Positions 2,215 to 59,473 are shown, numbered from the stretch's first letter. The stretch is 64,000 bases of DNA from Candidatus Omnitrophota bacterium (GCA_035368605.1 DAOSLF010000001.1:22877-86876); one strand, 5' to 3'. A program made the numbers and translations. Notes: generated from the letters alone by a model not told the origin.

Positions 2215-2290
2215 GGTGGGCGTAGCTCAATTTGGTTAGAGCACAAGATTGTGGATCTTGGGGTTGCGGGTTCAATTCCCGTCGCCCACC
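2215..2290 (+). tRNA. tRNA-His (anticodon GTG) with genomically encoded G-1
   Basis: Cloverleaf read by eye. Acceptor 5' strand GTGGGCG pairs with 3' strand CGCCCAC. The extra 5' G at 2215 opposite discriminator C is the His-specific G-1. Anticodon loop is TTGTGGA with GTG. T-arm is GCGGG-TTCAATT-CCCGT. No encoded CCA. Confidence 0.85.
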
Positions 2291-2322
2291 CGTTTTTACA
2301 TCCGAAGTGATGGGAGGCAGGT

Positions 2323-2530
2323 CATGAAAGAATTTTTCGTCGGTCTGCTCGCGATCATCGTTGTTCTCCTCCTCGCCGGCGTGGGGGTTCTCCTTTTTCC
2401 GTTCTTTCTTCTTCTCGGGATCGCGCTGAGATTTTTGGTCCTTGTTCTGGTCGGCCTTTTCGCGATCTGGCTCGTCGGCAAGCTTGTTTTGCTCCTGATC
2501 GATTCCCTGAAGAAGAAAGACCAAACGTAA
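2323..2530 (+). CDS. small hydrophobic membrane protein (two predicted TM helices), hypothetical
   Basis: ATG at 2323 is preceded by GGGAGG. 68 aa, almost entirely L/V/I/G/F with a KKKDQT tail. The longer track ORF from 2249 would overlap the tRNA. Confidence 0.45.
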
Positions 2531-2540
2531 GGAAGACCGC

Positions 2541-2792
2541 ATGGAAAGACTGATGACCGCCCGGCAGGTCAGTGAATTGCTCGAGGTCAATCCGTCCACG
2601 GTCTACCAATGGGTCCACCTCGGACTGATCCCGTACGTCAAGCTCGGGAAATGCGTCCGCTTCAAGAAGATCGAACTGTTCCGCTGGATCGACAAGAACC
2701 TGCGCCACGAAAAGGTCTCGTTCAAAACCGTCGAAAAAGTTCTTCGCAAACATCCTTCTGCCCGCCAGAAGGAATTCTCCGACCTGGAATGA
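2541..2792 (+). CDS. excisionase/AlpA-family helix-turn-helix DNA-binding protein
   Basis: MERLMTARQVSELLEVNPSTVYQWVHLGLIPYVKLGKCVRFKKIELFRWI matches the Xis/MerR-type HTH_17 pattern (L-t-x-xE-A-xLL-vs-xTvyrw-x-G-lP-x-kvG). Its stop overlaps the downstream OST start (ATGA at 2789-2792). Confidence 0.65.
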   Translation: MERLMTARQVSELLEVNPSTVYQWVHLGLIPYVKLGKCVRFKKIELFRWIDKNLRHEKVSFKTVEKVLRKHPSARQKEFSDLE

Positions 2793-5356
2793 AGACGGAC
2801 CTCTCCGGTGTTCTGAACAGACTTTCCGGGGCGGTGCCGGCCCGCATCGAGTTCCGGAGCCCCGTGACCGCTATCCTCCTGATGGTCCTCTGCCTCGGGG
2901 CCAATATCTATGTCCGTCTCTTTCCCGCGCATCTGCCCGGTCTCCGTCAGGAGGCGCTCCTGAACGTTGTGAACGCCGAACTGAAAGAGGGTGCCGGAAA
3001 CTATACCGGCGAGGCGAGGCTCAAGGGGCTTGCGGTTTCCGCCGCGGCACAAACCGGCATTACCCGGGATCCGACCGCTTTTTCCAGGAAGGTTGACGCA
3101 GAGCTCACGAAACTGAAAGGCCCGCTGCAGGATGAGAGTGGTTTGACCTATCTCCTGGAAAGCGATCCCTATGCCTGGGCGGTCTGGACGGAGAATGTCC
3201 TGCGGTATGGTCATCCGGGGAACCGGATCGTGAACGGGAAAAGTCATGACAGCCTGATGCTCGCCCCCCGCGGCCTCGAGGTCTTTCATTTTACATTCCT
3301 TTTTTATCTGACGGCGCACCTGTACAAGGCTGTTTCGCTTTTCAGCGGTGCGGTTTCTTTCCAGTCGTTCCTCTTTTATGTGCCGGTTTTTTATTCCGCT
3401 TGTTTTCTCGCGCTTTTTTATCTTTTCGTGAGGCGGTGGTCGACCGATCTCGCCGCGTTCTTTGCCGTGATGCTCGCGGGGTTTACGGGGGAAATGGTCC
3501 AGCGTGGCTGCGCGGGATGGTATGACTTCGATATGCTGAGCCTTTCCTTCGCGGTCCTTGTCGGCGGGTGTCTCGCGGAGGCCTTTCGGGACGGGGGATG
3601 GAAACGGATGATCCTTGGCACGGTGGCGGCGGCGTTTTTTGAAGGCGTCTACGCGATGACGTGGCTCGGCTGGTGGTTCATGCTTGTTGTCGCGGCCGGT
3701 TTTTTTATCTCGTCCGCCACGCTCGCGGTCATTGCAGGTCCCCAAAAGCTCAGTGCGGTGCTGCGTTCTCTTTTTTTCCATTTGTCCGCGGCGGTCCTCT
3801 TTTATGTCCTTTCGTTCCTGTTCGCCGGATGGATGACCGGTGTCGATATGATCGAACGGGTCGGGTGGCTCAGGTCGTTTCTCAGGTTCAATACGGCCCT
3901 GGGGGCGGACATCTGGCCGAATGTTTTCTACACGATCAGCGAACTCGGCGCCCTCTCGCTCCGGGGGATCGCAAGCCGTTTTTACGGGGTCATTCTTTTC
4001 TCGGCCATCCTTGTGTCTGTTGCGTTTGCGGTTGTCAGGGAATGGCGCTCGGACCGCCGGTCGGTGGTCCTGATCCTGCTTTCGTGGTTTGCTTTCATGT
4101 TTTTCGCTTCTTTTAGAGGAAATCGCTTCGTCCTTTACCTTGCGGTTCCGGCGTTCGCTTTCTTCGGGATCGCGCTTGCGGAATATTTGCCGGGCTGGAT
4201 CAAGGATCGTCTCGGCGGTATCTTGCGGATTCTTGCCTTTGGCGGTTATGTCGTTCTGCTCGGTTTTCTCGTCCGGACGGGATTTGCCTCCGGGATCGCG
4301 GTGGCCGAAAGCATCCGGCCCGTCATGAATGACGCATGGTATGAGGCCCTGAGCCGGATCGAACGTGAGACACCCAGGGATGCTATCATCAATTCCTGGT
4401 GGGATTTCGGGAGCTGGTTCCGCTATTACGGGAAACGCGGCGTGATCTTTGACGGTCAGTCTCAGGGCGGCCAGTTGGCGTACTGGATGGCAAGGGCGAT
4501 GCTTGAGACCGATGAAGAGAAGGCGGTCCGTATCCTTCGCATGTTGGACCTTTCGGGAACCGGCGCGTTTTTCCTTATCCAGGAACGGATTCGGGATCCC
4601 TACCGGAGCAAGACTGTTCTCGACAGCCTGTTGGCCTCGGATGAGGCAACTGCCCGTGAGATCCTCGCGTCGGAAGGTTTCGAGGCGGAAGGCGCGAAGA
4701 AGGTCCTGGATGATCTCTTTCGGCTTCCGGCGCCGGCGTATTTTGTCGTCGAAGGATCCATGGTCGGCAAGATGGCGAGTATCTCGTTCATTGGAAACTG
4801 GGACGCAAGGAAACTCATGATCGAACGCATGGCGGGTGAACCGGCGGAAGCTGTCCGGGGGCGGCTGACGTCCCTGTTCGGTCTCGCTCCGGAGGAGGCG
4901 GAAAGACTCTATCAAAGGCAGACGGAGACACTGAAAGGCGTTGATCGCAATGAAAGCATCTCCACGAGATCGGATTTCTTTTCAAGTCCCGTCAAGGGGG
5001 AGAAGGGGAAATCCCTCATCCGTTTTGACAATGGCGTTGTGTTCGACCCGGTTTCGCCGGAGGTGCTTTATTACTCGGAGGCCGCTTCGAAATTCAGGGT
5101 TCCGAAACGGGTCGTCTTGTGGCGTGAGGGTGTCCGCAGTGAAATGAAAAATGAAGGCGGTGGCGACGATGCGACGGTCCTGATCGCGGCGAACGGAGAG
5201 GAATACCGCGCGGTTCTCGCGAACGATGACCTGATCGATTCTCTTTTTGTGAGGCTTTATCTTCTCGGCGGTTCAGGCCTGAAACACTTCAATCCGTTCC
5301 ACTCGGATGACGAGTACAAGATTTATATTTACGAGATCGATTGGGGTGCTTCATGA
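2789..5356 (+). CDS. oligosaccharyltransferase of the STT3/AglB/PglB family (GT-C fold, N-glycosylation OST)
   Basis: 855 aa. The N-terminal half has many hydrophobic helices; the C-terminal half is a soluble domain. It contains the diagnostic WWDFG (INSWWDFGSWFRYYG), a TIxE loop motif (FYTISELGALS) and a DPY motif in the first external loop (ESDPYAWAVW, compare FDPYFNYR of eukaryotic STT3). Start MKTDLSGV at ATG 2789. Confidence 0.85.
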   Translation: MKTDLSGVLNRLSGAVPARIEFRSPVTAILLMVLCLGANIYVRLFPAHLPGLRQEALLNVVNAELKEGAGNYTGEARLKGLAVSAAAQTGITRDPTAFSRKVDAELTKLKGPLQDESGLTYLLESDPYAWAVWTENVLRYGHPGNRIVNGKSHDSLMLAPRGLEVFHFTFLFYLTAHLYKAVSLFSGAVSFQSFLFYVPVFYSACFLALFYLFVRRWSTDLAAFFAVMLAGFTGEMVQRGCAGWYDFDMLSLSFAVLVGGCLAEAFRDGGWKRMILGTVAAAFFEGVYAMTWLGWWFMLVVAAGFFISSATLAVIAGPQKLSAVLRSLFFHLSAAVLFYVLSFLFAGWMTGVDMIERVGWLRSFLRFNTALGADIWPNVFYTISELGALSLRGIASRFYGVILFSAILVSVAFAVVREWRSDRRSVVLILLSWFAFMFFASFRGNRFVLYLAVPAFAFFGIALAEYLPGWIKDRLGGILRILAFGGYVVLLGFLVRTGFASGIAVAESIRPVMNDAWYEALSRIERETPRDAIINSWWDFGSWFRYYGKRGVIFDGQSQGGQLAYWMARAMLETDEEKAVRILRMLDLSGTGAFFLIQERIRDPYRSKTVLDSLLASDEATAREILASEGFEAEGAKKVLDDLFRLPAPAYFVVEGSMVGKMASISFIGNWDARKLMIERMAGEPAEAVRGRLTSLFGLAPEEAERLYQRQTETLKGVDRNESISTRSDFFSSPVKGEKGKSLIRFDNGVVFDPVSPEVLYYSEAASKFRVPKRVVLWREGVRSEMKNEGGGDDATVLIAANGEEYRAVLANDDLIDSLFVRLYLLGGSGLKHFNPFHSDDEYKIYIYEIDWGAS

Positions 5357-6492
5357 GTGCCCATGATATTGAAGTTTCGGTGGTGATTCCGTGCCTGAAT
5401 GAGAGCGGGAGCGTCGGGACCTGTGTCGAAAAGGCGCGCGCTTATTTTTCGGCCAGGGGTATGGCGGGTGAGGTTATCGTGGTGGATAACGGTTCCTCCG
5501 ACGATTCGGTCGTGAAAGCACTGAATGCCGGCGCGCATGTCGTTCATGAGAAGGTTCGGGGGTATGGGGCCTCCTGCCTGCGGGGATTCCGGGAAGCTCG
5601 TGGTAAATATCTCGTCATGGGCGATGCTGACAATACCTACGATTTTGCTTCCCTGGACCCTTTCCTGGATCCCTTGCGAAGGGGGGCAGATGTTGTGATG
5701 GGGTCCCGTTTCCGGGGAAAGATCCATCGCGGAGCTATGCCGTGGACGAACCGCTATCTTGGCAATCCCGTCCTGACGGGGTTGTACCGCCTTTTCTTCC
5801 GCACGCGGCTCACGGACATCCACTGTGGCATTCGGAGTTTGACAAAAGATGCTTTTCTGAAGCTGAACCTGCACTGTCTCGGGATGGAATTCGCGTCTGA
5901 GATGGTTCTGGAAGCGCTGCAGAAGAAACTGAAGATCGTGGAAACACCGGTTGATTATTTTCCCCGCGAGGGCCGCTCAAAACTGGAGCCCATGAAAGAC
6001 GCCTGGCGGCATCTCCGCTTCATGCTTCTTTTCTGCCCGGACTGGCTTTATTTTGTCCCGGGTTTGTGTGTCGGGGGATCCGGATTTCTGGTGCTGCTCG
6101 CTCTTATCGGCGGGCCGGTCCATTTCCTGGGGCACGCCTGGGATATTCATATGCTGGTCTTTGCGGCATTCCTGAGCATTCTTGGCTATCAGATCCTCAA
6201 CGTTGGTCTCTACGCCAAGCTTTTTGCCGTTAAACAGGGATATCTGGAGAGTGATAGTACGCTGAACTGGTTCGCGCGGCACCTCCGTCTTGAGACCGGA
6301 GTTGTTTTGGGCCTGATATTGTTCGGCGCAGGACTTGTTCTGAATCTCTGGATCTTTGCTGAATGGTGGCAAAATGCTTTCGGGCCGCTCTATCGTATCC
6401 GCGAATCGGTCGCGGGGATGACGTTCATGACACTGGGCCTCCAGACGGTTTTTTCCTCTTTTTTTCTCAGCCTCATGAATCTCCGCCGCTGA
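5353..6492 (+). CDS. GT2 polyprenyl-phosphate glycosyltransferase (Dpm1/AglD/ArnC/GtrB-like) with C-terminal TM helices
   Basis: N-terminal GT-A domain with VVIPCLNE, VVDNGSSDDS and a DADNTYD (DxD) motif, followed by 2-4 hydrophobic helices. Start ATG 5353 overlaps the OST stop (ATGA). Confidence 0.8.
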   Translation: MSAHDIEVSVVIPCLNESGSVGTCVEKARAYFSARGMAGEVIVVDNGSSDDSVVKALNAGAHVVHEKVRGYGASCLRGFREARGKYLVMGDADNTYDFASLDPFLDPLRRGADVVMGSRFRGKIHRGAMPWTNRYLGNPVLTGLYRLFFRTRLTDIHCGIRSLTKDAFLKLNLHCLGMEFASEMVLEALQKKLKIVETPVDYFPREGRSKLEPMKDAWRHLRFMLLFCPDWLYFVPGLCVGGSGFLVLLALIGGPVHFLGHAWDIHMLVFAAFLSILGYQILNVGLYAKLFAVKQGYLESDSTLNWFARHLRLETGVVLGLILFGAGLVLNLWIFAEWWQNAFGPLYRIRESVAGMTFMTLGLQTVFSSFFLSLMNLRR

Positions 6493-6494: not shown

Positions 6495-7475
6495 ATGCAG
6501 AATTCAGTAACCAATCCCGCAGTCCCGAAAGCGTCCAGGGTTTCGATTGTGATCGCTGCGCGAAATGCCGAAAGGACGCTCGCTAAATGTCTCGATTCGC
6601 TCATGAAGCTCGATTATCCGGATTACGAGGTTATCGTGGTGGACGACGGCTCGACGGATGGAACGCGCGATATTGCGTGTCATTATCCCGGTATCGTCTT
6701 GCTTGGGACTGGTGGCGCAGGACCTGCCGTGGCTCGAAATACAGGTGTCAAGATCGCACGAGGCGAGTTCGTCGCCTTTTTAGATTCGGATTGTTATGTG
6801 CGCCCGGATTGGTTATCCGAGCTCCTTCGGGGGTTTGTTGACGACCGTGTAGCGGGGGTCGGGGGGTGCCAAGAAAGTCCGCATGATGAAGAACCCTTCG
6901 GGCGTGAGGTCCATCGTTTTTTCTCCTGCGCCGGATTCCTCACAAATTATATGCAGCGCGCCGTTGCGACGCGCGAGGTCACGCACAATGCGAGCTGCAA
7001 CGTCATGTACCGGAAGGCGGTCTATCGGGTGCTCGGCGGGTTCGAAGAAGGGTTCTGGCCCGGGGAGGATCTGGAGTTCGACCACAGGGTGCGGACCCGG
7101 GGATATCGTCTGTTTCAGGTGCCGGACGCGATCGTTTATCACTACCGGGCCGACACGATCGAACGGTTCAGGAACATGATGCACCGCTACGGCTGGGCGC
7201 AGGGGATGCTGGCCCGCCGGCACGGCCTGTTCCGTCCTATCCAGTGGGTGCCGGTCCTGATGTTGCTGCTGGCGGTGGGGGGCGGAGCGGGGTTTTTGGT
7301 TTCTCCAACCTGGACCGTGGTGCTGGCGGTTGTTGTTTCGTGGATTGTTTGGGAATGGCTCGGTCGCGATCCCGCGCTGCTGAAACTGTTTGTGAACGCT
7401 CTTTTTTTCTGGAACGCCGGTTTTATGAAAGGGCTGACGGAACGCCGCGAGGGTGAGAGGCGTCCGAATCGGTAA
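6495..7475 (+). CDS. GT2 family glycosyltransferase
   Basis: Start MQNSVTNP at ATG 6495, 2 nt after the previous stop. Motifs SIVIAARN, VIVVDDGSTDGT and FLDSDCYV (DxD), with a C-terminal hydrophobic segment. Confidence 0.8.
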   Translation: MQNSVTNPAVPKASRVSIVIAARNAERTLAKCLDSLMKLDYPDYEVIVVDDGSTDGTRDIACHYPGIVLLGTGGAGPAVARNTGVKIARGEFVAFLDSDCYVRPDWLSELLRGFVDDRVAGVGGCQESPHDEEPFGREVHRFFSCAGFLTNYMQRAVATREVTHNASCNVMYRKAVYRVLGGFEEGFWPGEDLEFDHRVRTRGYRLFQVPDAIVYHYRADTIERFRNMMHRYGWAQGMLARRHGLFRPIQWVPVLMLLLAVGGGAGFLVSPTWTVVLAVVVSWIVWEWLGRDPALLKLFVNALFFWNAGFMKGLTERREGERRPNR

Positions 7476-7517: not shown

Positions 7518-8723
7518 ATGATGCGGTCTGTTTATCGTGTAGCCGTTAAGTGCTTTGCCTGGGGCATGCTGGGAATCGGGCGGGTGTTGCGGCGCTCCCG
7601 GCCTCGCTACGATTTTGCGACCATCCGGAAGATCCTAATCAATAAGTGTGACCGACTGGGAGACGCGGTCGTGATCTTGCCGCTACTCTTGGAACTTCAA
7701 AAACATTACCAGATCACCGTTTTGACTTCAGAACGGAACGATGAGTTCCTTCGTCGGTTTGTCCCGACGAAAAAGTATATTGCCGAACCGAAATCTTTTC
7801 ACCAAGTCCTGCGGATGCTCTTGAGTGGTTGTGCCGTTTTTTGGGGGAAGAGGGGCTCAAAGGATCCCGACTATGACCTTTACCTTGACTTCAACGGCCT
7901 CAAGGAGCTTGATGTTTTTTTTAAAGTTTGGAAGGATGCTCTTTGTGCACATCATGCCAGTTTCAATATGGGTTTTTGGAACGGGATGCTGGATTATTCA
8001 CATCGGGATTATCCGGTGCTTTTTTCCCGGAGGCCCGTTCTGGATTCTTATGCCCAATTGGTGTGCGAAGCGCTTGGAGTCGAAATTACATTAGCGAGCG
8101 TGGGAGGGGCACACGCTGTTTTTCCGGAGGAAATGCCGCCCGGTGATTTTGTCATCATTAATGTTTCCGGCCATGAACGTTATCGCGGACCGGCGCTGGT
8201 CTTCTATGCGGAGTTGATAAAGGAAATAGCACAGCGGTTGGGATGTTTCATTATGGATGAGCTTGGCGGGACCCATATGCCAGCCATCAAGGAAATGACC
8301 CGGGGAACAGACAATGTCTATTATGCGGAACGGGATTTTTCAATATGGGAGTTGGCCGGGCTTGCTTCCAAGGCCCGGGGCTATCTCGGTGCTGATTCCG
8401 GTATCAGTCATCTGATGGGGGGGCTAACGAATGCGATCGTTTTCTTTGGCGATCAAACAAGTGAAATCTGGCGGCCCTATGTTCCAAGTGGTTATGAAAA
8501 ATGCGAGTATAAGGAAGGGTTTATCCTTGAGAGATCGGTCGATCCGTCCGGTTTTTTGAAGGCTGTTATTTATCAACCCGTGCGCTGCCGGCCCTGTTTC
8601 GATTGGGGATGCCGTCGGCCCGTGTGCGTGGACGCATTTTTAGCTGTTAAGGAGCCATTGATCAACGTGGTGTTAGAGCTTTTCAGATCGTGCGGTGCGA
8701 TCCCGGGAGCGGTGGATTTATGA
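7518..8723 (+). CDS. GT9 family glycosyltransferase (heptosyltransferase-like)
   Basis: KILINKCDRLGDAVVILPLL is the typical GT9 N-terminal motif. The gene is visibly AT-richer than its neighbours. Confidence 0.6.
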   Translation: MMRSVYRVAVKCFAWGMLGIGRVLRRSRPRYDFATIRKILINKCDRLGDAVVILPLLLELQKHYQITVLTSERNDEFLRRFVPTKKYIAEPKSFHQVLRMLLSGCAVFWGKRGSKDPDYDLYLDFNGLKELDVFFKVWKDALCAHHASFNMGFWNGMLDYSHRDYPVLFSRRPVLDSYAQLVCEALGVEITLASVGGAHAVFPEEMPPGDFVIINVSGHERYRGPALVFYAELIKEIAQRLGCFIMDELGGTHMPAIKEMTRGTDNVYYAERDFSIWELAGLASKARGYLGADSGISHLMGGLTNAIVFFGDQTSEIWRPYVPSGYEKCEYKEGFILERSVDPSGFLKAVIYQPVRCRPCFDWGCRRPVCVDAFLAVKEPLINVVLELFRSCGAIPGAVDL

Positions 8724-9853
8724 GAATTGCCGTGGATGCGTTCCCTTTGGTCACCCCGAGGACCGGGTTCGGCCAGTGGGTCCATCATCTGGCGCGCGAA
8801 TGGTCGGGGGAGCGCAGCCAGGAACTTTATTTGTTTAATACGAAGAAACGCCGGATCGACGGATATCCCGGAGCTGTTTTTAATACCCGATATCCGACGA
8901 TCCTGGATCGATCCAGTATTTTTTGGATGACGGTCCGCGGTCGTGCCGAGCTGTCGGATTGTCGCCCCGACGTTTTTTGGGGAAGCCAGGGGTTCCTGCC
9001 ACTGCGGATGCCGGAGGAGGTCGCCAAGGTCATCACGGTCCATGATGCCGTTTATTATGCTTGTCCCGAAACGATGAGCGGCATCACACACTTTACCTAC
9101 CAGACTTTTTTAGAACAGTCGATTCGGAAGGCCGACGCGGTAGTGACGGTTTCCCGAACGATGAAAGAACAACTGGAGGGGATTTTTCTCAAAAGGGAGA
9201 TCCGCCGGGAACTGGATGTGGTTTACCCCGGCGTGGATGATGCCTTTCGATTTACGGAGAAGTCTTTAGCCCGAGAGTGTATCGCAGGGACTTACCGGAT
9301 AACCCGGCCGTATCTGCTTTTTGTCGGGACTTGCGAACCGAGAAAAAATCTTGTCGGATTGATAAGGGCGTTCCGGATTTTTCTTGAAAGAAATCCCTCT
9401 GACCACCAGCTGCTGATCGTGGGCGCCAAGGGGTGGAAGGACGCTCCGATCTATGCCGAGGTGAAACGCCAAGGCGCCGAGGATCGGGTAAGGTTTCTCG
9501 GGTATGTCCCTCAAAAAGACCTTCCCGCTTTTTATTCCGCAGCGGATGCGTTTGTTTTTGTGCCTTTTTATGAAGGATTCGGAATTCCGAACCTGGAAGC
9601 CATGGCTTGCGGCGTTCCGATCATTGCCTCAGATATACCGGTCTTCCGTGAGGTTCTGAACGACGCGGCATTCTTTGTCAGGCCGGAAGACCCGCGGGAC
9701 ATTGCCGACGGGATACAGGCAGTGCTTTTGAATACCGGCTTGCGAAACGACCTTGTCCGGAGGGGGGCGATCCGGGCTCGCGCTTTTTCCTGGCCCCGTT
9801 CTTCCGAAGCGATGCTCGATGTTTTTCGCCGGGTTTTGAAATCTCGCGCGTGA
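8720..9853 (+). CDS. GT4 (glycosyl transferase group 1) glycosyltransferase
   Basis: Start MRIAVDAF overlaps the previous stop (ATGA). C-terminal EGFGIPNLEAMACGVPIIASDIPVFREV is the GT4 EX7E-type motif. Confidence 0.8.
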   Translation: MRIAVDAFPLVTPRTGFGQWVHHLAREWSGERSQELYLFNTKKRRIDGYPGAVFNTRYPTILDRSSIFWMTVRGRAELSDCRPDVFWGSQGFLPLRMPEEVAKVITVHDAVYYACPETMSGITHFTYQTFLEQSIRKADAVVTVSRTMKEQLEGIFLKREIRRELDVVYPGVDDAFRFTEKSLARECIAGTYRITRPYLLFVGTCEPRKNLVGLIRAFRIFLERNPSDHQLLIVGAKGWKDAPIYAEVKRQGAEDRVRFLGYVPQKDLPAFYSAADAFVFVPFYEGFGIPNLEAMACGVPIIASDIPVFREVLNDAAFFVRPEDPRDIADGIQAVLLNTGLRNDLVRRGAIRARAFSWPRSSEAMLDVFRRVLKSRA

Positions 9854-9861
9854 AGAACGAT

Positions 9862-10269
9862 ATGAAAAAGACCATGACTATCACCGCGTTCAACCGGCCG
9901 GGATATCTCGAACAGATGCTGCGCGACGCGGGATCAATGGCGGTCTTGTTTCATGCCGCGATGGTTCGATGGACGGAATCTATCGCGGACCTGCGGGCTG
10001 TTGCTGACCCGGGAAGGATGGGATTGGGCGATCTTGAGGGGGGGGATCTTCGGCGGGGTTCTAAATTATTCGCGCTCCAGCCTCTTTACGCTCGGGCGAC
10101 ACACATCGGTCGGGATCAGGTGACTTACTGTGTCCCGGAGTTTTATGGCATTATTTTTGATGGAATCCGTTTGTGTGAAAGAACGATGCCGGTCCAGTAT
10201 CGCATTTCGCGAAAATGGTCCAACTTGTTCTGGAATGGTCTGCCCCTGGTTTACGATCTGTCGCGATAG
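9862..10269 (+). CDS. hypothetical protein; N-terminus resembles the start of a GT-A glycosyltransferase (possible gene remnant)
   Basis: MKKTMTITAFNRPGYLEQML resembles the xTxxNRPxYL opening of GT2 enzymes, but no DxD follows. No SD is visible. Followed by an AT-rich roughly 400-bp gap. Confidence 0.3.
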   Translation: MKKTMTITAFNRPGYLEQMLRDAGSMAVLFHAAMVRWTESIADLRAVADPGRMGLGDLEGGDLRRGSKLFALQPLYARATHIGRDQVTYCVPEFYGIIFDGIRLCERTMPVQYRISRKWSNLFWNGLPLVYDLSR

Positions 10270-10668
10270 GCTTCTTCAGGCAGATTCTTTTGATGTGTTT
10301 TGGGGAATGAAAGGGGATGTCTCCGGTTACGGGGATGATGATATGTGTCATAAATTAAAATAGATTCACGGAGATTGGTGGGGATTTTATAGCCCCAAGT
10401 TGAAAGTGATGATAGCGGTCCGGAATGAATTATGACCGGCGGTCTTGATGCCTGTATTAAACGAGAAGAATCATGATACTGATAGGGTGTTGTCTACCCG
10501 TGAAATCATGTGGGTTGATTTTCTTGCGGATGCTTTGGAGGACGATGATTTGAAAAAGAAATATTCAGAACCGGGGAAGCGGCGGGCGTATGACTTTCAT
10601 ATCGACAAGATCGTGCCGCAGTGGCTGGAGTGTCTCTCGTGAGATCAGTCCGTTCCGGGGATTCGTTT

Positions 10669-12255
10669 ATGAGGCACTCTTTCAGGTTCATGCTGTCCAG
10701 AGGATTATTTGCTGTTTCGGGTGTGCTATTCTGGTTTGTAGCGGCCCGGTGCTATTCGGTGGAGGCGATCGGTTTGGCATCGGCAGTGATCTCAGCGTCT
10801 TCTCTCATTCTTTTTTTTGCAGGATTGGGAATGGGCCCCGTTTTGGTGCGGTTTTTACCGCGGAGTTCAGAAAAAAAGAAGCTTTTGGCGACTCTTTTTC
10901 TTTTTTCCCTTATCCTGCTCGGTTTGTTGCTGACGGTTTTTATATCTGGCATAAAAAGTTTTCTGCCACAGGCTGCCTCTTTCGACCTCATCTATACCCG
11001 GATCCTCTTCGTCGCATCCGTCATCTCGTTCTTTGTGTTTTACGTACTGGAGGCAGTCCTGGTGGCTTTTAAACGGACCGGTGCGCTTGTCGCGACGGAC
11101 ATCCTGCAGTATTTTCCCCGGATCGTTTTCCTGCCGCTTATGGTCGGGTGGGGAGGGAGCGGTATTTATTTCGCGAATGGTTTGTCCGCGGCCCTCGCGG
11201 TGGTTGCCGGACTTTTTTTTATGCGGGATAAGATGGGCCCCGGGAACGGACAGAGCGGATTCGACCCCGGACTTTTGCGCGAGACGCTGCCCCTTTCGCT
11301 GGTCAATTTTTTCAGTTCTGCCACCCTTTTTTTACCGGGAGTATTAATCCCGCTAGTCATCGTTAGATGGTTTTCCGAACGCGAAGCCGGTTTTTTTTAT
11401 TTGCCGTGGATGATGTTCTCGGTCTACGCATCGTTCCTGGGGTCGGCGACCGGCACTCTTTTGATGAAAGCCTCTCACGGCGAGGACCCGGAACCGCTTT
11501 TTAAAAAAACCGTGGCTGTGACGATTTTTTTGGTTGTCGCAGGAGCCCTTGTTTTTCTACCGTTTGCGCCGGCGATCCTGGGGATCTTTAAAAAGGAATT
11601 TCAATCCGAATCCCTTGTGATCTTGAGGATTCTTTTTTTGTCCATTTTCTTTTTCCCGGTCCACCAGATTTACATCACGCTTTGTAATATCCGCAGGGAC
11701 GTGGTTCGGATCGGGTGGGTGGCTTTCGTTTTTTTAGCGCTGCTTGCGATCTTTTCGATCATTTTGTTTGTCCGCCAGGGTGTCGCGATATTCGCCTGGG
11801 CGTGGTTTTGGGCGAATGTGGTGACGGCAGGGTTTGTGCTATTGCTGGTAACTCTGGACAGGCGGAAGGGTATCCGGAGAAATTTCGACTCATCTCTTGA
11901 GCCGATTGTGTCGAGAGAATATAATAGCCCGGAGGAAAGACAGGGCCGATATCTTTGGTTGGGACGGCAATTCCAAAAAAAGCGGCTTGATTTTCATTGG
12001 AAGAGAAAGTGGAAATCAATGCGATCCAATTTTTTGTCAGAAAAAACTGGATTGGAGAGGTGGCCCATGACAGAACCTCAGCGACATACACTGGTTGCGA
12101 GCGGCGCATTTGTTGTGGTCGGGTGTTTTATCCTTTATCTGGCTCTTTTCGGTCTCCACGTTGTGGATCCCAAGGGGCTGATCCTGATGGTGGGATTCCT
12201 GGCCGCGGTCACGATGATCGCCGCGCAAAAGCGTAAACGCAATCCGTTGCTGTAA
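10669..12255 (+). CDS. Wzx-like polysaccharide/oligosaccharide flippase (MOP superfamily polysaccharide biosynthesis protein)
   Basis: About 12 hydrophobic helices with the typical PST-family organisation (LVRFLPRSSEKKKLL loop). Start ATG 10669. The unusual charged insertion plus extra TM at the C-terminus was not checked. Confidence 0.65.
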   Translation: MRHSFRFMLSRGLFAVSGVLFWFVAARCYSVEAIGLASAVISASSLILFFAGLGMGPVLVRFLPRSSEKKKLLATLFLFSLILLGLLLTVFISGIKSFLPQAASFDLIYTRILFVASVISFFVFYVLEAVLVAFKRTGALVATDILQYFPRIVFLPLMVGWGGSGIYFANGLSAALAVVAGLFFMRDKMGPGNGQSGFDPGLLRETLPLSLVNFFSSATLFLPGVLIPLVIVRWFSEREAGFFYLPWMMFSVYASFLGSATGTLLMKASHGEDPEPLFKKTVAVTIFLVVAGALVFLPFAPAILGIFKKEFQSESLVILRILFLSIFFFPVHQIYITLCNIRRDVVRIGWVAFVFLALLAIFSIILFVRQGVAIFAWAWFWANVVTAGFVLLLVTLDRRKGIRRNFDSSLEPIVSREYNSPEERQGRYLWLGRQFQKKRLDFHWKRKWKSMRSNFLSEKTGLERWPMTEPQRHTLVASGAFVVVGCFILYLALFGLHVVDPKGLILMVGFLAAVTMIAAQKRKRNPLL

Positions 12256-12496: not shown

Positions 12497-13607
12497 GTGA
12501 ACGAAGAAGTTTTCGCCCTCAAAGCAACCCTCCAGGATCTCAAGGACAAACTCCAAGAGATAAGGAGGTATCTTTGACCTCGCCAGCCAGGAGCAGGAAG
12601 TCGAAGCGATAAACCGGAAGATGGCGGCTGCCGATTTCTGGGACTGTCAGTCGGAAGCCCAGACGACCGTCGAACGCCTGAAAATCCTCAAGAAGGTCGT
12701 CGAACCCTGGCATCATGCCGACCGCGCCTGCGCCGATCTTGTCGAGTTTCTCGATATGGTCGATGAAAACCAGATCGAATCCCTGAAAGATCTTGCCGTT
12801 GATGTTCAAAAGGTCCGGCAGGAGGTCGAGAACCTCGAATTCCAGCGTCTTTTCACCGATCCCTTTGATCCGAACAACGCGATTATCAGCATCAACGCCG
12901 GTGCCGGCGGCACCGAGGCCTGCGATTGGGCGCAGATGCTCTTCCGGATGTATACCCGTTATTGCGAACAGCATGATCAAAAGATCCAGATGATCGATCT
13001 GATGGAAGGGGAAGGCGCGGGGATCAAGAGTGCGACCTTTATCGCACAGGGGCCCTACGCGTACGGCTACCTCAAGGCCGAATCCGGCGTGCATCGCCTT
13101 GTCCGAATCTCGCCGTTCGACGCGAACAAACGACGCCACACCTCCTTTGCCTCTGTCGATGTGATCGCGGAGGTTGAGGACACGCCCGAAGTCGAGATCA
13201 AGGAAGCGGATCTCCGGATCGACGCCTATCGCGCGGGAGGCGCCGGTGGCCAGCATGTCAACAAGACCTCGAGCGCGATCCGCATCACGCACATTCCGAC
13301 CGGTATCGTGGTACAATGCCAGAACGAACGTTCCCAGGGACAGAATAAAGCGGTCGCGATGAATGTCCTCCGGGCGCGCCTTTACGAGCGGTACCGGCAG
13401 GAGCAGGAATCCGAACTTGCCAGGAAATACGGCCCCAAGAAAAAGATCGAGTGGGGTTCCCAGATCCGGTCCTATGTGTTCCATCCGTATTCCATGGTGA
13501 AAGATCACCGGACGGACGTCGAGACTTCGAATGTCCAGGCCGTGATGGACGGGGACCTCGATGAATTCATTCACGTCTATCTGAAACAGCACGTGTCAAA
13601 AATCTGA
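12497..13607 (+). CDS. prfB: peptide chain release factor 2 with programmed +1 ribosomal frameshift (join 12497..12574,12576..13607)
   Basis: Frame-0 ORF VNEEVFALKATLQDLKDKLQEIRRYL ends at the in-frame TGA (12575-12577) within AGGAGG TAT CTT TGA C. The +1 frame continues DLASQEQEV... to 13607. SPF motif (RISPFD) and GGQ (RAGGAGGQHVNKT) are present. This parallels E. coli RGYL-UGA-D. Confidence 0.9.
12563..12578 (+). promoter_or_regulatory. prfB autoregulatory +1 frameshift site (internal SD AGGAGG, slippery CTT, UGA-C stop)
   Basis: Sequence AGGAGGTATCTTTGAC matches the conserved RF2 recoding cassette. Confidence 0.85.
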
Positions 13608-30577: not shown

Positions 30578-31753
30578 CTATCGCCAGTGTGTCGGGTGTT
30601 TCAGCGCGGCCATTTTCAGGGCATCCGCGAGGATGAGCGTGAAAACGGCGGCGGCAAGCGGATGAAACAATGCTGATACCGGATTCGCCTTGACTATCGT
30701 ATGGGTCTTAAACGCCGTGATCCAGATGATGAACGCAAGTCCTGTCGCCAGAATCCCGGCCAGTGAATTTCCGAAACAGAAAGGCAGGATGGCGAACGGT
30801 AACACCGAAAAAAGAAAAGTGCTCAGGACACAGCGTAGAAGGTCCGCCGGATTTTGTTCAAAGGCGTGAAGGTAGATGCGCCGCCACCCCCGCCATAGCG
30901 TCTCGAACGAGTCATACATCCGGGTACCATAGAGATTCATTCCGAAAGCGCAAATCCCCTTTGCCCCGGTTTCCTTGGTCTTTCTCATCAGCGCGAAGTC
31001 TTCGAGAAAAGCCTCCTTGACCGCGTGATGACAGCCGAGTTTCCGGTAATGGCTGTGCCGGAGAAGGAGGTACTGGCCGTTTCCGAAGTAGACCTTTGAT
31101 TCGGGATCGTTGATCTTCCGGACAGGGAACCATAGCCCCATGTAGCCCATCGCGCAGGGCTGGATGAGGTTTTCCCAGAAGCCGTGAGCCAGACAGCGGG
31201 GAAGCAGGGTCAGGAGGTCAAGGGAGTTTGTTTCCGAAAAAGCGATCGCGGCGTCGACGCTTCCCGGTTCGTGTCTTGTGTCGGCGTCCGTGAAAAGCAG
31301 CCAGTCGCCTTTGGCGTAGTCTTTGCCGAGATGAAGCGCATAGTTCTTTCCCGTCCAGCCTTCAGGAGTCTCGGGAGTATTGAGATATCCCAAAAAGGGT
31401 CCGTCGCTACTGTCCTTTTTTGTACCGAAAAAGGTGCCTGACCCCTTGATTTCCTCAGCGCCAAGGTCTTTCAGGATCGCTTCGGTTCTGTCTGTGGAGC
31501 CGTTATTGATGACGATGATCTCATCGCTCTCTCGGAGCTGGCTCAAAAAGGGCCGGACGCATGCCGCGATGTTTTTTTCCTCGTTCCGGGCCGGGATCAG
31601 GACCGTCACAGAACCTTTGCGAATGTTTCCGGAAGGAATTCTGAGCGCGGGGGCTTGGGCCAGTTCGGAGAGGGACCGGATGCTACGGTAAATCCATACA
31701 CCAAGCGCAGTCAGGAGATAGGTCAGGAGGATGGGCTCCATAGAGTCAGGCAT
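30578..31753 (-). CDS. membrane-anchored GT2 glycosyltransferase
   Basis: N-terminal TM, VLIPARNEE, IIVINNGSTDRT and FTDADT (DxD), plus C-terminal hydrophobic helices. Start assumed at MPDSMEPILLTY. Confidence 0.7.
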   Translation of the reverse strand: MPDSMEPILLTYLLTALGVWIYRSIRSLSELAQAPALRIPSGNIRKGSVTVLIPARNEEKNIAACVRPFLSQLRESDEIIVINNGSTDRTEAILKDLGAEEIKGSGTFFGTKKDSSDGPFLGYLNTPETPEGWTGKNYALHLGKDYAKGDWLLFTDADTRHEPGSVDAAIAFSETNSLDLLTLLPRCLAHGFWENLIQPCAMGYMGLWFPVRKINDPESKVYFGNGQYLLLRHSHYRKLGCHHAVKEAFLEDFALMRKTKETGAKGICAFGMNLYGTRMYDSFETLWRGWRRIYLHAFEQNPADLLRCVLSTFLFSVLPFAILPFCFGNSLAGILATGLAFIIWITAFKTHTIVKANPVSALFHPLAAAVFTLILADALKMAALKHPTHWR

Positions 31754-31821
31754 CTTAGCAAATGGAGATGGCGGGTCAAGGAAAACTATCAACGGCTAGC
31801 ATTTCTAATCGTTGGGATGGA

Positions 31822-36326: not shown

Positions 36327-36848
36327 ATGATCTGCAATGTGTGCGGGACAAAGGAAGCGACGATTCACCTGACCGAGGTTGTGAGCGGTCAGATGGCGGA
36401 AGTGCATATCTGCGAGCAGTGCGCCGAAGAGAAGGGGACGGATTTCAAGACCTATTTCAACTTTGGCGACTTCTTCACGGGTTTCGCGGGGATCGGAAAA
36501 CTTCTTGAGACGCCGGGGGAAAAAACCGCGGTCGCCTGCAAATCCTGCGGTATGACCTTCGAGGAATTCTCCAAACAGGGACGTCTTGGATGCGCGCAGT
36601 GTTATACCGCGTTTCATCGTCAGCTTGAAGCCGTGATCAAACAGGTCCAGCGGGCGGGGGTCCATGTCGGCAAAAAACCGTCCAGAATCCCGAAGGATGT
36701 TCGGCGCGCTCACGATCTCCGCCAGCTTCAGGACCGTCTGCGCAAATGCATCCAGAACGAGGCGTTTGAGGAAGCGGCGCGCCTTCGCGACGAGATCAGG
36801 CAGATCGAAGACAAGAACAAGCGCCCGAGGAAAACAAAAAATGACTGA
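36327..36848 (+). CDS. mcsA: protein-arginine kinase activator McsA-like (zinc-finger plus UVR domain)
   Basis: Paired CxxC motifs (CNVCG...CEQC; CKSCG...CAQC). C-terminal UVR motif AFEEAARLRDEIRQIE. Confidence 0.7.
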   Translation: MICNVCGTKEATIHLTEVVSGQMAEVHICEQCAEEKGTDFKTYFNFGDFFTGFAGIGKLLETPGEKTAVACKSCGMTFEEFSKQGRLGCAQCYTAFHRQLEAVIKQVQRAGVHVGKKPSRIPKDVRRAHDLRQLQDRLRKCIQNEAFEEAARLRDEIRQIEDKNKRPRKTKND

Positions 36849-37905
36849 GAACGGTTCTTCGCCGGCGCAGTCGGTCAACTGGCTTCGGGCCACGGGTCCC
36901 GAGAACGATGTGGTCGTCAGCTCCCGCATACGGCTCGCGCGCAATCTCGCGAATTACCCGTTCCTGATCAAGATGACGCCCGATCAGCGGATCGCCCTGA
37001 TCGCGGAGATGGAAAAGGCGGTCCGCGCCTCGAGTTTTCTGAAGAAGGCCAACATGATCCTGACGAAGGAGATCGGCGAGATCGACCGGCAGTTCCTTCT
37101 CGAGCGGTATCTGATTTCGAACGCGCTGGTGCGCGAGGACGGTGCGAGCGCGGTTGTGATCACGCCGGATGAAATGGTCAGCCTCATGATGATCGAGGAA
37201 GACCACCTCCGGCTCCAGGTCTTCCAGTCGGGGCTGAACCTTGCCGAGGCGTGGCGCATTGCCGACGAGATCGATATGGAACTCGAAAAGAGCCTTAGTT
37301 ACGCTTTTGACGCGACGCTTGGTTACCTGACGGCCTGCCCGACGAATGTCGGGACCGGTATTCGCGCCTCCTGCATGCTGCATCTGCCGAGCCTTGTGAT
37401 TACGAAACAGATCCAGAAGGTGTTGCAGGCGCTTTCAAAACTGAACCTCGCGGTGCGAGGCCTTTACGGCGAAGGGACACAGGCGCTCGGGAGTTTTTTC
37501 CAGTTCTCGAACCAGATCACGCTCGGACAGCCTGAGACGGAGATCATCTCGAATCTCGAAGGAGTCATTAAACAGGTAATCACGCATGAGCGGGAGGCGC
37601 GGGAATATCTCCGGAAGAAACGCAAAACAAAAATGGAAGACCAGGTGTGGCGGGCGCTCGGCGTTCTGAAATCGGCGAGGCTCATCTCGTCCCAGGAAGC
37701 GATCCAGCTTTTGTCGCTTGTGCAGACCGGTGTCGATACCGGGATCATCGAAGGCCGGGTGACCCACCGGGACCTGAACCAGCTTTTTTTATGGATCCAG
37801 CCCGGGCATCTCCAAAAAATGCACGGGTCGGAACTCAGCGCTGCGGATCGCGACATTCAACGCGCTGACCGGATCCGGACGTTCTTCTCAAAGTTGTTAC
37901 TTTAA
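36841..37905 (+). CDS. mcsB: protein arginine kinase McsB (ATP:guanido phosphotransferase)
   Basis: Phosphagen-kinase signature CPTNVGTGIRAS. Overlaps the mcsA 3' end. Confidence 0.85.
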   Translation: MTENGSSPAQSVNWLRATGPENDVVVSSRIRLARNLANYPFLIKMTPDQRIALIAEMEKAVRASSFLKKANMILTKEIGEIDRQFLLERYLISNALVREDGASAVVITPDEMVSLMMIEEDHLRLQVFQSGLNLAEAWRIADEIDMELEKSLSYAFDATLGYLTACPTNVGTGIRASCMLHLPSLVITKQIQKVLQALSKLNLAVRGLYGEGTQALGSFFQFSNQITLGQPETEIISNLEGVIKQVITHEREAREYLRKKRKTKMEDQVWRALGVLKSARLISSQEAIQLLSLVQTGVDTGIIEGRVTHRDLNQLFLWIQPGHLQKMHGSELSAADRDIQRADRIRTFFSKLLL

Positions 37906-37908
37906 CCC

Positions 37909-39621: not shown

Positions 39622-39667
39622 GCGAGTGTCGTTCGTCATCGTACCATAAAATCTCCGGAGGTTTTTC

Positions 39668-58138: not shown

Positions 58139-59425
58139 TCATTTTAGTCTTAACTGTTTGACTGTGAAGTACGTGATCGTGAAGATCCCGGCTTCGATGA
58201 TGACGGTTGCGATGGCGGCTCCGGCATAGGAAAAAGAATAGATCAAGAGAAAGATCAACGGGAGACCCACCATCGCCATGACGATGTGGATTCTGGAGTA
58301 AATGGAGGTCTTGCCGCAGATCAGCAGGAACTGGATCCGGAAGGCGTTTGCGCCGACGATAAAGACCGCGCAAAGAAGGATCCGGAGGGTCAGGACGGCC
58401 TGGGGTGAATCGCCGCCGCAGATGATGCGGACGATCGGCCCGGCGAAGAGGAAGATCAGCGGAAGACAGATCAGGGAGATCGAGACCGTGATCTGCTGGA
58501 TTTTTCTCATGAATTCATAGGCGCGCCGCTGGTTTTTCTGGAAGATCTTGCTGAGCCTCGGGAAGAGTGCCTGTGAAAACGATGAGAGCGGGAACTGCTG
58601 GCAGAACCCGGCGATCCTTTCCGCGATCGAATAATATCCCGTGAGGGTGTTGTTCGTGAGAAGCCCGACCGTGAACACGCGCGTGGTCGTATAGGCGTTG
58701 ATCGCGACGTTGGATATGAAAATGTCCCAACCCGCCTTCATCTGCTGCTGCATGGAGGTGTAGCCCGGGAACCGGAAGGAGATTCCGAGTTTCGTAAAGC
58801 CGATGAAGAGGGCCCAAAGGCCCGTCATGATAGAGACAACGGAATAGACGAGCGGTACTATGAGGTAGTCGGACGGGCTCTTGACAAACATGAACACGAA
58901 AAGCGCGAAAAGGACTCCGCCGAGGATGTTGAGATCCGCGATGTGCTTCATTTTCTCGGTTCCCTGGAACAGCCACACTGGGAAAATCGTGTTTCCGATG
59001 ACCGCTCCGAAACTGAAAAGGTAGACCATCCAGTCCGCGCGGAAGCGCGGGACCAGGTAGACAATGGCGCCCAGGATCATCAGGCTCAACGCGGCCAGGA
59101 CGATCTTGGCCGTTATAACCGCGGAAAAGATTTCGCTGATCCTGGCGCGGCGATCCTGGTAGAGAGAGATCTCCCTGGTGGCCGAGATGCCGAATCCGTA
59201 GTCGGTCAGGATCATGAAATACTGGATGAAGGACTGCGCGAAAGCGATCAGGCCGAACTTGTCAGGACCGATGACCCGGAACAGGTAAGGGATGATGATG
59301 ACCGGAAGGATGTACGTGATCGCTTGAAGGATCGAAAGCGAGGCGAAATTCTCAAGCACGGTCCGGCGTTCGTGCCGGCCGGCCATGCGATAAGTTTTTT
59401 TGATCTGTCCGATGAGGGAGCGCAT
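58139..59425 (-). CDS. Wzx-like polysaccharide flippase (MOP/PST family)
   Basis: Start MRSLIGQIKKTYRMAGRHERRTVLENFASLSILQAITYILP (rc of cat at 59423-59425). 12-14 TM helices. The long track ORF N-extension was rejected. Confidence 0.7.
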   Translation of the reverse strand: MRSLIGQIKKTYRMAGRHERRTVLENFASLSILQAITYILPVIIIPYLFRVIGPDKFGLIAFAQSFIQYFMILTDYGFGISATREISLYQDRRARISEIFSAVITAKIVLAALSLMILGAIVYLVPRFRADWMVYLFSFGAVIGNTIFPVWLFQGTEKMKHIADLNILGGVLFALFVFMFVKSPSDYLIVPLVYSVVSIMTGLWALFIGFTKLGISFRFPGYTSMQQQMKAGWDIFISNVAINAYTTTRVFTVGLLTNNTLTGYYSIAERIAGFCQQFPLSSFSQALFPRLSKIFQKNQRRAYEFMRKIQQITVSISLICLPLIFLFAGPIVRIICGGDSPQAVLTLRILLCAVFIVGANAFRIQFLLICGKTSIYSRIHIVMAMVGLPLIFLLIYSFSYAGAAIATVIIEAGIFTITYFTVKQLRLK

Positions 59426-59473
59426 GGCGTGTAATCTATCTGTTTCGAGGGTATAAAACAAGGATGCCGAGTG

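Follow-up and report, generated by a model that had tools for sequence, protein, structure and literature searches.

The 64,000-nucleotide stretch of a Candidatus Omnitrophota bacterium contig studied here (GCA_035368605.1, DAOSLF010000001.1:22877-86876; hereinafter, the window) contains a gene for an STT3-family oligosaccharyltransferase (OST), which belongs to a distinct, undescribed STT3 clade found only in Omnitrophota and DPANN archaea. Judging from sequence and gene context, we consider it likely that this protein is an active, single-subunit OST of the inner membrane and that its donor glycan is linked to a polyprenyl monophosphate. The gene and its hallmark motifs amount to a correct but ordinary annotation check, as the gene had already been annotated as an OST. 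What is not routine is the lineage common to Omnitrophota and DPANN archaea, with its Lys-type acceptor pocket, its 11 predicted transmembrane (TM) helices, the insertion in its external loop 1 (EL1), and its partner enzyme resembling dolichol-phosphate mannose synthase (DPMS).

The open reading frame (ORF) that contains the OST gene spans 915 codons (2609..5356, plus strand), and the three peptides that a sequence-only reading of this DNA had singled out, ESDPYAWAVW, FYTISELGALS, and SWWDFGSW, indeed lie in this single frame (Table 1). The 60 codons ahead of position 2789 correspond to an upstream helix-turn-helix (HTH) gene in another frame, the stop codon of which overlaps the ATG at 2789 as ATGA. 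Since gene callers placed the start at this ATG in three independent assemblies (JGI, ENA, and NCBI GCA_022705965.1), the product is taken to be 855 amino acids (aa) long. It is identical to a database protein (P0001; loci and proteins are given here by our own L and P numbers) from a metagenome-assembled genome of a Candidatus Omnitrophica bacterium, labeled by NCBI as 'Undecaprenyl-diphosphooligosaccharide--protein glycotransferase', i.e., as PglB.

STT3 fold, acceptor pocket, and predicted topology

The OST matched Pfam STT3 (PF02516; CAZy family GT66; E=1e-17, 65.2 bits against a gathering cutoff of 24.5) and STT3-PglB_core (E=2.9e-7, 31.5 bits against a cutoff of 23). As a single sequence, it retrieved only STT3A (E=9e-5) and PglB (E=0.04) from among solved structures; a profile built from 12 family sequences found Campylobacter lari PglB (4e-24), STT3A (9e-22), and Archaeoglobus fulgidus AglB (3e-19) in the PDB. 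The AlphaFold2 (AF2) model, based on an alignment of 16 sequences (pLDDT, 85.8; pTM, 0.82), has the GT-C/STT3 fold, and Foldseek ranked PglB (5OGL) first (E=7e-22; TM score of 0.68 on the target), followed by STT3A, A. fulgidus AglB, and yeast Stt3, with other GT-C enzymes far behind. The comparison with C. lari PglB and A. fulgidus AglB that had been proposed as a check on the assignment thus gave matches to both, by profile as well as by Foldseek, PglB being the better of the two. The OST stayed below the equivalog cutoff for PglB (NF050801; 34.5 versus 1300 bits) and below the subfamily cutoff for archaeo_STT3 (TIGR04154; 29.6 versus 450 bits). Despite its NCBI label, it is outside the PglB lineage.

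For residue-level comparison, C. lari PglB and its relatives were aligned and matched by hhalign to the OST family alignment (probability of 99.75%, E=3e-27, 558 aligned columns), and conservation was counted in a MAFFT alignment of 163 family members, to which all such counts below refer. The 'DPY' motif of the sequence-only reading proved to be real, with an Asp (D126) present in all 163 members, and is more precisely described as the first acidic (DXD-type) motif (E124-S-D126-P-Y); in a profile search against the PDB, D126-P-Y aligned with D49-P-Y of human STT3A, which contains the catalytic Asp. In EL5, T382-I383-x-E385 corresponds to T316-I317-M318-E319 of PglB by hhalign; E385 is invariant, T382 is found in 158 members, and the preceding W376, P377, and N378 are each found in at least 152. 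Likewise by hhalign, W537-W538-D539-F540-G541 aligned with W463-W464-D465-Y466-G467; WWD is conserved in at least 159 members, with W538 and G541 present in all 163 and D539 in 161. Three more signatures were recognized in addition to those read initially, namely, G243-W-Y-D246-F-D248, R446, and M658..K661..I665 (discussed below). Both hhalign and the PDB profile search aligned D246 and D248 with D154 and D156 of PglB (D154-T-D156) and R446 with R375; D246 and D248 are each present in 158 members, the remainder having mostly Glu, and R446 is present in all of them. By alignment, the metal- and amide-activating acidic residues have their counterparts in D126, D246/D248, and E385, and R446 stands where PglB has R375, a conserved Arg close to the carrier phosphate; a phosphate-binding role may be presumed for R446 as well. 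Because these motif residues show little or no variation among 163 homologues, the initial call of a robust OST, which is also backed by the Pfam match and the AF2 fold, finds support here, and the idea that the motifs are catalytic and acceptor-binding signatures of STT3 enzymes is borne out by their homologous positions in PglB and STT3A. Recognition of an N-x-S/T sequon, suggested in the same reading, is consistent with the conserved residues.

With respect to the acceptor pocket, the fourth residue of the WWDXG motif is Phe in 120 members, Tyr in 30, Asn in 6, and Gln in 2. The motif is known to vary at this residue in Euryarchaeota (PMC11407970) and, since WWDFG is the norm in a family in which Phe is found in 120 of 163 members, we do not regard it as a notable deviation from WWDYG. 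A second part of the pocket is formed by the DK or MI motif, located on the helix beside WWDXG and defined by Kohda's group as DXXKXXX(M/I) and MXXIXXX(I/V/W), respectively; all PglBs carry the MI motif (Ile-type pocket), whereas STT3 and most AglBs carry the DK motif (Lys-type pocket) (PMC3703281). Inspection of this position, which the sequence-only reading had recommended, revealed M658-x-x-K661-x-x-x-I665, a Lys-type variant unlike that of PglB, with M658, K661, and I665 aligned by hhalign to M569, I572, and V576. K661 is found in 151 members and M658 in 144, and most archaeal relatives have D-M-x-x-K-x-x-x-W at this position. As read from the alignment, the OST motif is a hybrid, the first residue being MI-like and the functionally decisive second residue being Lys, as in DK; a bacterial OST with such a predicted Lys-type pocket departs from the rule for PglBs. 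W537-W538-D539 and K661 thereby align with the pocket that reads the Ser/Thr at position +2 of the N-x-S/T sequon.

The hhalign alignment also paired R397 with PglB R331, the reader of the acidic residue at position -2, although this is a loop position with uncertain alignment. Across the family, the column holds a gap in 122 members and Arg in only 3, and we therefore rejected the idea that R397 reads an acidic residue at -2 as in PglB, keeping it as a weak lead only. An extended sequon is conceivable for the Omnitrophota OST alone, not for the family.

Topology was derived from the AF2 helices with DSSP, from hydropathy, and from the positive-inside rule, all of which agree. In the resulting prediction, TM1 (residues 24-43) is followed by EL1 (44-190), which comprises a three-helix insertion (50-113), the helix carrying D126, and an amphipathic helix; then come TM2 and TM3, EL2 with D246/D248, four helices within residues 248-350, EL5 with WPN...TISE, four helices within residues 401-507, one of which has R446 at its periplasmic end, and, last, the periplasmic C-terminal domain. 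The predicted cytoplasmic loops are enriched in basic residues. Placement of the motifs on the wrong side of the membrane had been named as what would refute the OST assignment; since all of them are predicted to lie outside, on the periplasmic side, the topology agrees with it.

The prediction yields 11 TM helices, against 13 in PglB, AglB, and STT3. Both HMM (hidden Markov model) and hhalign alignments show that a 36-residue insertion of PglB, corresponding to its TM7-TM8 hairpin, is absent from the OST, and the spacing between D248 and E385 is 137 residues (family median, 143), compared to 163 in PglB. The same crude hydropathy peak-picking gave 13 peaks in PglB and 10 in the OST, plus a weakly hydrophobic helix (271-288). 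Being derived from a model and from hydropathy, the count of 11 is moderately secure only. The EL1 insertion is specific to the family (helices 50-71, 76-93, and 95-113 in the model) and is found in bacterial and archaeal members alike; the catalytic Asp is residue 126 from the N terminus (family median, 165; PglB, 56). Helix number varies within the clade, as the spacing between the equivalents of E385 and R446 is 126-171 residues in part of the family; a Nanobdellota homologue (P0010, L004:3455-6181) has two extra hydrophobic helices after EL5, between the equivalents of 401-417 and 424-443.

Relatives in Omnitrophota and DPANN archaea

A word-indexed search, which returned 12-16 relatives, had given the impression of a tiny family. 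This impression was overturned when a profile was searched exhaustively against 1.84 billion cluster representatives: 6511 of them matched with E<=1e-3, of which 1641 with E<=1e-30, and the top 150 were without exception full length (E<1e-190). Scanning one genome per GTDB species yielded 80 loci. The bacterial loci were nearly all from Omnitrophota, including single-cell genomes (SAGs; L014 and L030), the exceptions being a few unclassified or crudely labeled bins and one Auribacterota bin. The remaining loci were from DPANN archaea (Woesearchaeota, Nanoarchaeota, and Nanobdellota), the proteins of which were 25-30% identical to the OST over their full length and scored 224-235 bits in single-sequence comparisons, versus 15-24 bits for PglB and STT3A. 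A neighbor-joining tree (824 columns, without support values) placed the bacterial and archaeal clades as sisters.

The sequence comparisons thus identify the AglB-like proteins of DPANN archaea (Woesearchaeota/Nanoarchaeota) as the true nearest relatives of the OST outside Omnitrophota. They have in common with it the EL1 insertion, WWDFG, M-x-x-K, the C-terminal domain, and an adjacent gene of glycosyltransferase (GT) family GT2; they differ in forming a separate sister clade, in that many of them are longer, and in having a short GT2 with a separate DUF2304 protein. The clade being common to Omnitrophota and DPANN archaea, one old interdomain transfer of the OST and GT2 module is implied. 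An OST on a 3.4-kb contig labeled 'Aminicenantes' (L059, JAUXFB010000246.1) fell inside the archaeal clade, beside a Nanoarchaeota SAG (L079); this is probably a case of misbinning, with recent transfer as the alternative.

Three assemblies agree fully on the OST locus. Its flanks in the window comprise an aminotransferase gene, tRNA-His, and genes for release factor 2 (RF2), SecA, Lnt, elongation factor P (EF-P), and Fab proteins, as well as genes for LolCDE-like and Mla transporters, ClpC/McsB, IspDF, and aminoacyl-tRNA synthetases. With bacterial housekeeping genes on both sides, the OST is not considered an archaeal contaminant. A search of the full-text literature on Omnitrophota in combination with oligosaccharyltransferase or N-glycosylation returned nothing relevant.

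Adjacent glycosyltransferases and the probable donor lipid

Downstream of the OST gene and on the same strand follow genes for two GT2 proteins (the first hereinafter called GT2a), a GT9-like protein, a GT4, a 139-aa ORF, and a 521-aa membrane protein (Table 1). The ATG of GT2a overlaps the stop codon of the OST gene as ATGA, and the two genes are translationally coupled. In NCBIfam, GT2a matched AglJ best (2.6e-43 over 283 of 293 positions; 148 bits, compared to an equivalog cutoff of 325), followed by dolichol-phosphate (Dol-P) hexose transferase (4e-24) and PpgS (1.8e-22), and its best PDB match was Pyrococcus furiosus DPMS (5mlz; 9e-14), followed by ArnC (4.5e-9). By similarity, GT2a is a putative polyprenyl-monophosphate glycosyltransferase. 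It has a GT2 (GT-A) catalytic domain, and its C-terminal third is hydrophobic; Pfam detected no DUF2304 in this fused C terminus, for which the precomputed label is GT2_TM_C.

To assess how well this arrangement is kept, we counted adjacency by tblastn in those loci that had room downstream of the OST gene. Of 35 bacterial and 40 archaeal loci, 18 and 33, respectively, have a GT2a homologue directly 3' of it (51 of 75 in total), and, in Omnitrophota, these GT2 proteins are more conserved (54-68% identity to GT2a) than the OSTs (32-44%). A Pfam census yielded, for 116 downstream ORFs in 39 bacterial loci, 30 GT2, 9 radical SAM, 8 GT4, and 7 PMT_2 matches, and, for 148 downstream ORFs in 45 archaeal loci, 40 GT2, 24 DUF2304, 19 GT9, and 12 GT4 matches. 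The phosphoglycosyl transferase (PGT) families MraY/WecA (PF00953) and PglC-type (PF02397) are not among the 25 most frequent Pfam families in the 264 downstream ORFs of these 84 loci, nor does the OST cluster of the window contain a PGT. The translational coupling of GT2a to the OST and the adjacency of the two in 51 of 75 loci, together with the lack of a recurrent PGT, suggest a monophosphate-linked donor, and the OST would probably use a polyprenyl-P-linked glycan rather than one linked to undecaprenyl diphosphate (Und-PP), as used by PglB.

The recurrent operon of DPANN archaea (L035-L084; e.g., L036:898-5766) encodes an AglB-like OST, a GT2 of ~220 aa, a DUF2304/GacJ-like protein of ~110 aa, and a GT9. 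DUF2304 corresponds to GacJ. This small membrane protein is the partner of GacI, the enzyme that makes GlcNAc-P-undecaprenol (N-acetylglucosamine on undecaprenyl monophosphate); a Wzx-like protein then flips the product, which serves as substrate for the GT-C enzyme GacL, and some bacteria have GacI and GacJ as a fusion (bioRxiv 10.1101/180810).

Other neighbors occur as well. A gene for a PMT_2-type (ArnT/PMT-like) GT-C follows OST and GT2 in 7 of the 39 bacterial loci (e.g., L085:4560-6182), and radical-SAM/B12-binding genes are found in 9 Omnitrophota-type loci; such clusters might serve to attach or alter sugars extracellularly or to methylate sugars. At L002:7092-10023 (P0008 relative, >20 contigs), GT2 is replaced and the OST gene is followed by genes for an amine-oxidase/phytoene-desaturase-like flavoprotein and an ABC-2 transporter pair, and in Nanobdellota locus L004 a geranylgeranyl-reductase-like flavoprotein is encoded just 5' of the OST; these proteins might modify or export the lipid carrier.

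In the pathway that we envisage, the donor would be built by the products of the cotranscribed genes, following the logic of the euryarchaeal AglJ/AglK-AglB systems: GT2a would put the first sugar on a polyprenyl monophosphate, the second GT2, the GT9-like protein, and the GT4 may lengthen the glycan on the cytoplasmic side, flipping of the lipid-linked glycan may fall to the 521-aa membrane protein, and the OST would transfer it to the Asn of N-x-S/T in exported proteins. Homologues of the second GT2 are present in related loci, and those of the GT9-like protein (37-55% identity) are found in 6 related bacterial loci; the 139-aa ORF has no homologue in any related locus. For the 521-aa protein, no Pfam or PDB match was obtained, and a single-sequence AF2 model (pLDDT, 50.8) was unusable. 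It has a weak pairwise match (E=7e-5) to the N terminus of a Polysacc_synt flippase in the OST cluster of L001, and homologues with 56% identity are located directly 3' of the OST gene in L006 and L031. Since it is not similar to the PMT_2 protein of L085 and lacks a Pfam or PDB match, we ruled it out as a second GT-C. Elsewhere in the window (58139-60196, minus strand), a 685-aa protein has a clear Polysacc_synt (Wzx-type flippase) domain; it could be the real flippase of the OST pathway or part of another polysaccharide system.

Among characterized systems, the euryarchaeal AglB pathways (Haloferax volcanii AglJ or Methanococcus voltae AglK, with AglB) are similar in that a DPM1-like GT2 is coupled to the OST, AglJ being the best NCBIfam match of GT2a, and in their Lys-type pocket, variable fourth WWDXG residue, further cytoplasmic GTs, and flippase-like protein. 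AglK and AglJ belong to pathways in which the glycan is begun on dolichol monophosphate. For the Euryarchaeota, Dol-P is the documented carrier (PMC11407970). The differences are that GT2a is below the AglJ equivalog cutoff and the OST below that of archaeo_STT3; moreover, in a diderm bacterial host, a bacterial polyprenol would be expected in place of the euryarchaeal dolichol. A. fulgidus AglB-L (3WAJ/5GMY/7E9S) has the STT3 fold, a Lys-type pocket, and extra helices in the central core unit, and its solved complex with dolichol phosphate counts as a further likeness, but it is a weaker match than PglB (71 versus 88 bits) and differs in having 13 TM helices, a variant DK motif with an insertion (E<>K), and other peripheral domains.

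Like the OST, C. lari PglB (3RCE/5OGL) is a bacterial, single-subunit enzyme, with acidic residues, TIxE, Arg, and WWD at equivalent positions, a helical insertion after WWDXG, and a C-terminal beta domain. However, the two are only ~14-18% identical, K661 replaces I572, the OST lacks the TM7-TM8 hairpin (11 versus 13 helices) and has an EL1 that is ~70 residues longer, an Arg at the R331 position is found in only the 3 family members mentioned above, and no pgl-type PGT or bacillosamine genes lie near the OST gene.

Several points weigh against a monophosphate-linked pathway as outlined here. Activity, acceptor, and donor are all inferred, and whether the carrier is a mono- or a diphosphate cannot be read from the sequence, R446 being conserved in enzymes of both kinds. 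The best solved match, by profile and by fold, is PglB and not an archaeal AglB. A GT2a homologue was not detectable in the fetched flank of 17 of the 35 bacterial loci; where a PMT_2-type GT-C follows GT2 (7/39 bacterial loci), GT2 may therefore serve another GT-C; and a PGT could lie elsewhere in the genome, our view being limited to 64 kb. Finally, the flippase assignment is weak, the helix count stands on model and hydropathy, and the tree is a neighbor-joining tree without support values.

One possibility, unlikely in our view but deserving serious attention, is that the OST is a conventional PglB-type enzyme using an Und-PP-linked glycan, with a PGT encoded elsewhere and with GT2a only supplying an undecaprenyl-P (Und-P)-monosaccharide with which the glycan, or another polymer, is decorated in the periplasm. 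The NCBI label, the rank of PglB among solved structures, and the PglB-like layout of the C-terminal domain would fit this explanation, yet neither its 34.5 bits, where the PglB equivalog requires 1300, nor its Lys-type pocket, where all described PglBs have the MI motif, does. Similarly, the PMT_2-type GT-C genes in 7 of the 39 bacterial clusters might encode users of Und-P-sugars, but the cluster in the window contains no other GT-C able to use the GT2a product, no PGT recurs in the 84 related loci, and the OST-GT2 pair is kept across two domains of life.

Alternatively, the OST might resemble GacL in taking a polyprenyl-P-monosaccharide directly from the adjacent GT2 and adding a single sugar to Asn, the other GTs acting elsewhere or after transfer. 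GacI/GacJ/GacK/GacL of Streptococcus pyogenes and PpgS/Rv3632 of Mycobacterium tuberculosis are indeed similar systems, in which a GT2 polyprenyl-P-sugar synthase (plus DUF2304 or a fused TM part) is combined with a Wzx-like flippase and a GT-C; the minimal conserved unit consists of OST and GT2 (plus DUF2304/GacJ in archaea), the products of GacI/GacJ go directly to a GT-C enzyme, and GT2a also resembles PpgS and ArnC. The GT-C of those systems decorates a polysaccharide with one sugar, whereas the OST is an STT3 with an intact peptide-sequon pocket. We see little likelihood in this explanation: characterized STT3-family enzymes transfer preassembled glycans, and genes for cytoplasmic GT9 and GT4 proteins recur in the operons of both domains, in keeping with elongation ahead of flipping. 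That the protein is not a protein N-glycosyltransferase at all, being inactive, acting on a nonprotein acceptor, or representing an archaeal contaminant in a bacterial bin, is very improbable, as its inferred activity, unusual helix count, large EL1 insertion, and archaeal nearest relatives outside the phylum are set against conservation of every catalytic and Ser/Thr-pocket residue across 163 homologues, bacterial housekeeping genes on both sides, on one contig and in three assemblies, and a deep clade of its own for the Omnitrophota sequences, with many species and with two SAGs (L014 and L030) that carry the family.

We thus favor an OST with a polyprenyl-P-linked donor. The more specific proposal, that Omnitrophota have a module in common only with DPANN archaea, in which a minimal 11-helix, Lys-type STT3 acts on a polyprenyl monophosphate charged by the adjacent GT2, is put forward tentatively, as something that may well turn out otherwise. 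Most known cases of N-linked protein glycosylation in bacteria come from Campylobacterota, with a few from Desulfobacterota, and the enzymes known from these groups are all of the PglB lineage. Here, a whole bacterial phylum of ultrasmall cells carries a different STT3 lineage, with a partner enzyme that points to another donor chemistry. If the proposal is true, bacteria would here be seen for the first time to run an N-OST pathway by the euryarchaeal Dol-P logic instead of the Und-PP logic of PglB, and it would testify to an ancient exchange of a cell surface module between two ultrasmall, probably host-attached lineages. Its confirmation would broaden what is known of where bacterial N-glycosylation occurs and how it works, make a compact single-subunit OST, possibly with other sequon or donor preferences, available for glycoengineering, and document interdomain transfer of a surface modification system between groups thought to live attached to other cells.

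Features of the window

Table 1. Coordinates, in the window, of the OST gene, its motifs, and the genes around it
Feature	Position	Strand	Basis
HTH_17/excisionase-family DNA-binding protein, 83 aa, candidate regulator	2541..2792	+	Pfam HTH_17, 1.9e-13
Single-subunit STT3-family OST, 855 aa	2789..5356	+	Pfam, AF2 model, Foldseek, hhalign
Three-helix EL1 insertion of ~70 residues (44-113), upstream of catalytic Asp	2918..3127	+	AF2 model
ESDPYAWAVW, first acidic (DXD-type) motif, EL1, catalytic D126	3158..3187	+	STT3A alignment, conservation
GWYDFD (G243-W-Y-D246-F-D248), second DXD motif	3515..3532	+	Aligned to PglB D154/D156
WPNVFYTISE, EL5 segment with TIxE (T382 I383 S384 E385), then LGALS	3914..3943 (LGALS onward)	+	Aligned to PglB
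R446, equivalent of PglB R375	4124..4126	+	Alignment, 163/163 conservation
SWWDFGSW, WWDXG motif (W537 W538 D539 F540 G541), +2 Ser/Thr pocket (by alignment)	4394..4417	+	Aligned to PglB W463-G467
MVGKMASI, motif at DK/MI position (M658-x-x-K661-x-x-x-I665)	4760..4783	+	hhalign to PglB
C-terminal beta-rich domain, residues ~735-850, PglB-like	4991..5338	+	DSSP strands 735-850; HMM/hhalign to PglB ~601-708
GT2a, putative polyprenyl-monophosphate glycosyltransferase (DPMS/AglJ/PpgS/ArnC-like), C-terminal TM domain	5353..6492	+	NCBIfam, PDB profile matches
Second GT2, membrane-spanning C terminus	6495..7475	+	Pfam Glycos_transf_2, 3e-36; start from gene calls
Divergent GT9-like (heptosyltransferase-fold) protein	7518..8723	+	Weak Pfam and NCBIfam GT9 matches
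GT4 glycosyltransferase	8720..9853	+	Pfam Glycos_transf_1, 8.7e-38
139-aa ORF	9850..10269	as OST	
521-aa multipass membrane protein, possibly a divergent Wzx/MOP-type flippase	10690..12255	+	Weak match to L001 flippase

Upstream, the HTH_17 gene is translationally coupled to the OST gene. A tRNA-His, a 68-aa hydrophobic ORF (2324..2530), and the HTH_17 gene (window positions 2216-2792) lie directly 5' of the OST gene, and likewise in L003, L006, and L031, where the tRNA-His is on the opposite strand. In these three loci, the HTH_17 protein directly 5' of the OST is 73-78% identical, with OSTs that are only 38-42% identical. While an excisionase-like HTH_17 next to a tRNA-His might suggest a genomic island, we rejected this possibility because tRNA-His, small TM ORF, HTH gene, and OST gene are kept together in three relatives with OSTs of 38-42% identity and because the flanks consist of housekeeping genes; neither the window cluster nor the related clusters examined yielded an integrase gene. 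Farther upstream on the source contig, to the left of the window and ~8.7 kb 5' of the OST gene, a giant protein of 5549 residues is encoded (L087-L089), with weak GT2, inositol-phosphatase, and cytidylate-kinase-like matches.

At the other end of the cluster, G+C content drops to 0.496 at positions 10001-12000, compared to 0.54-0.60 elsewhere, in a region that spans the 521-aa gene and the poorly coding 10270-10690. It is followed by prfB (12497-12640, on to 13607), which contains the classic programmed +1 frameshift site of RF2: frame 0 runs from the GTG at 12497 to AGGAGG TAT CTT TGA C (12564-12578), and the body of RF2 continues in the +1 frame through the ORF at 12621..13607. A further GT2 (GT21-like) gene is located at 30578-31792 (minus strand). 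Finally, adjacent genes at 36664-42130 encode a McsB-like arginine kinase (ATP:guanido phosphotransferase), a DUF4140/DUF4139 protein, and a ClpC-type AAA+ protein, an arrangement that looks like a protein-arginine-phosphorylation quality control module in a diderm bacterium.

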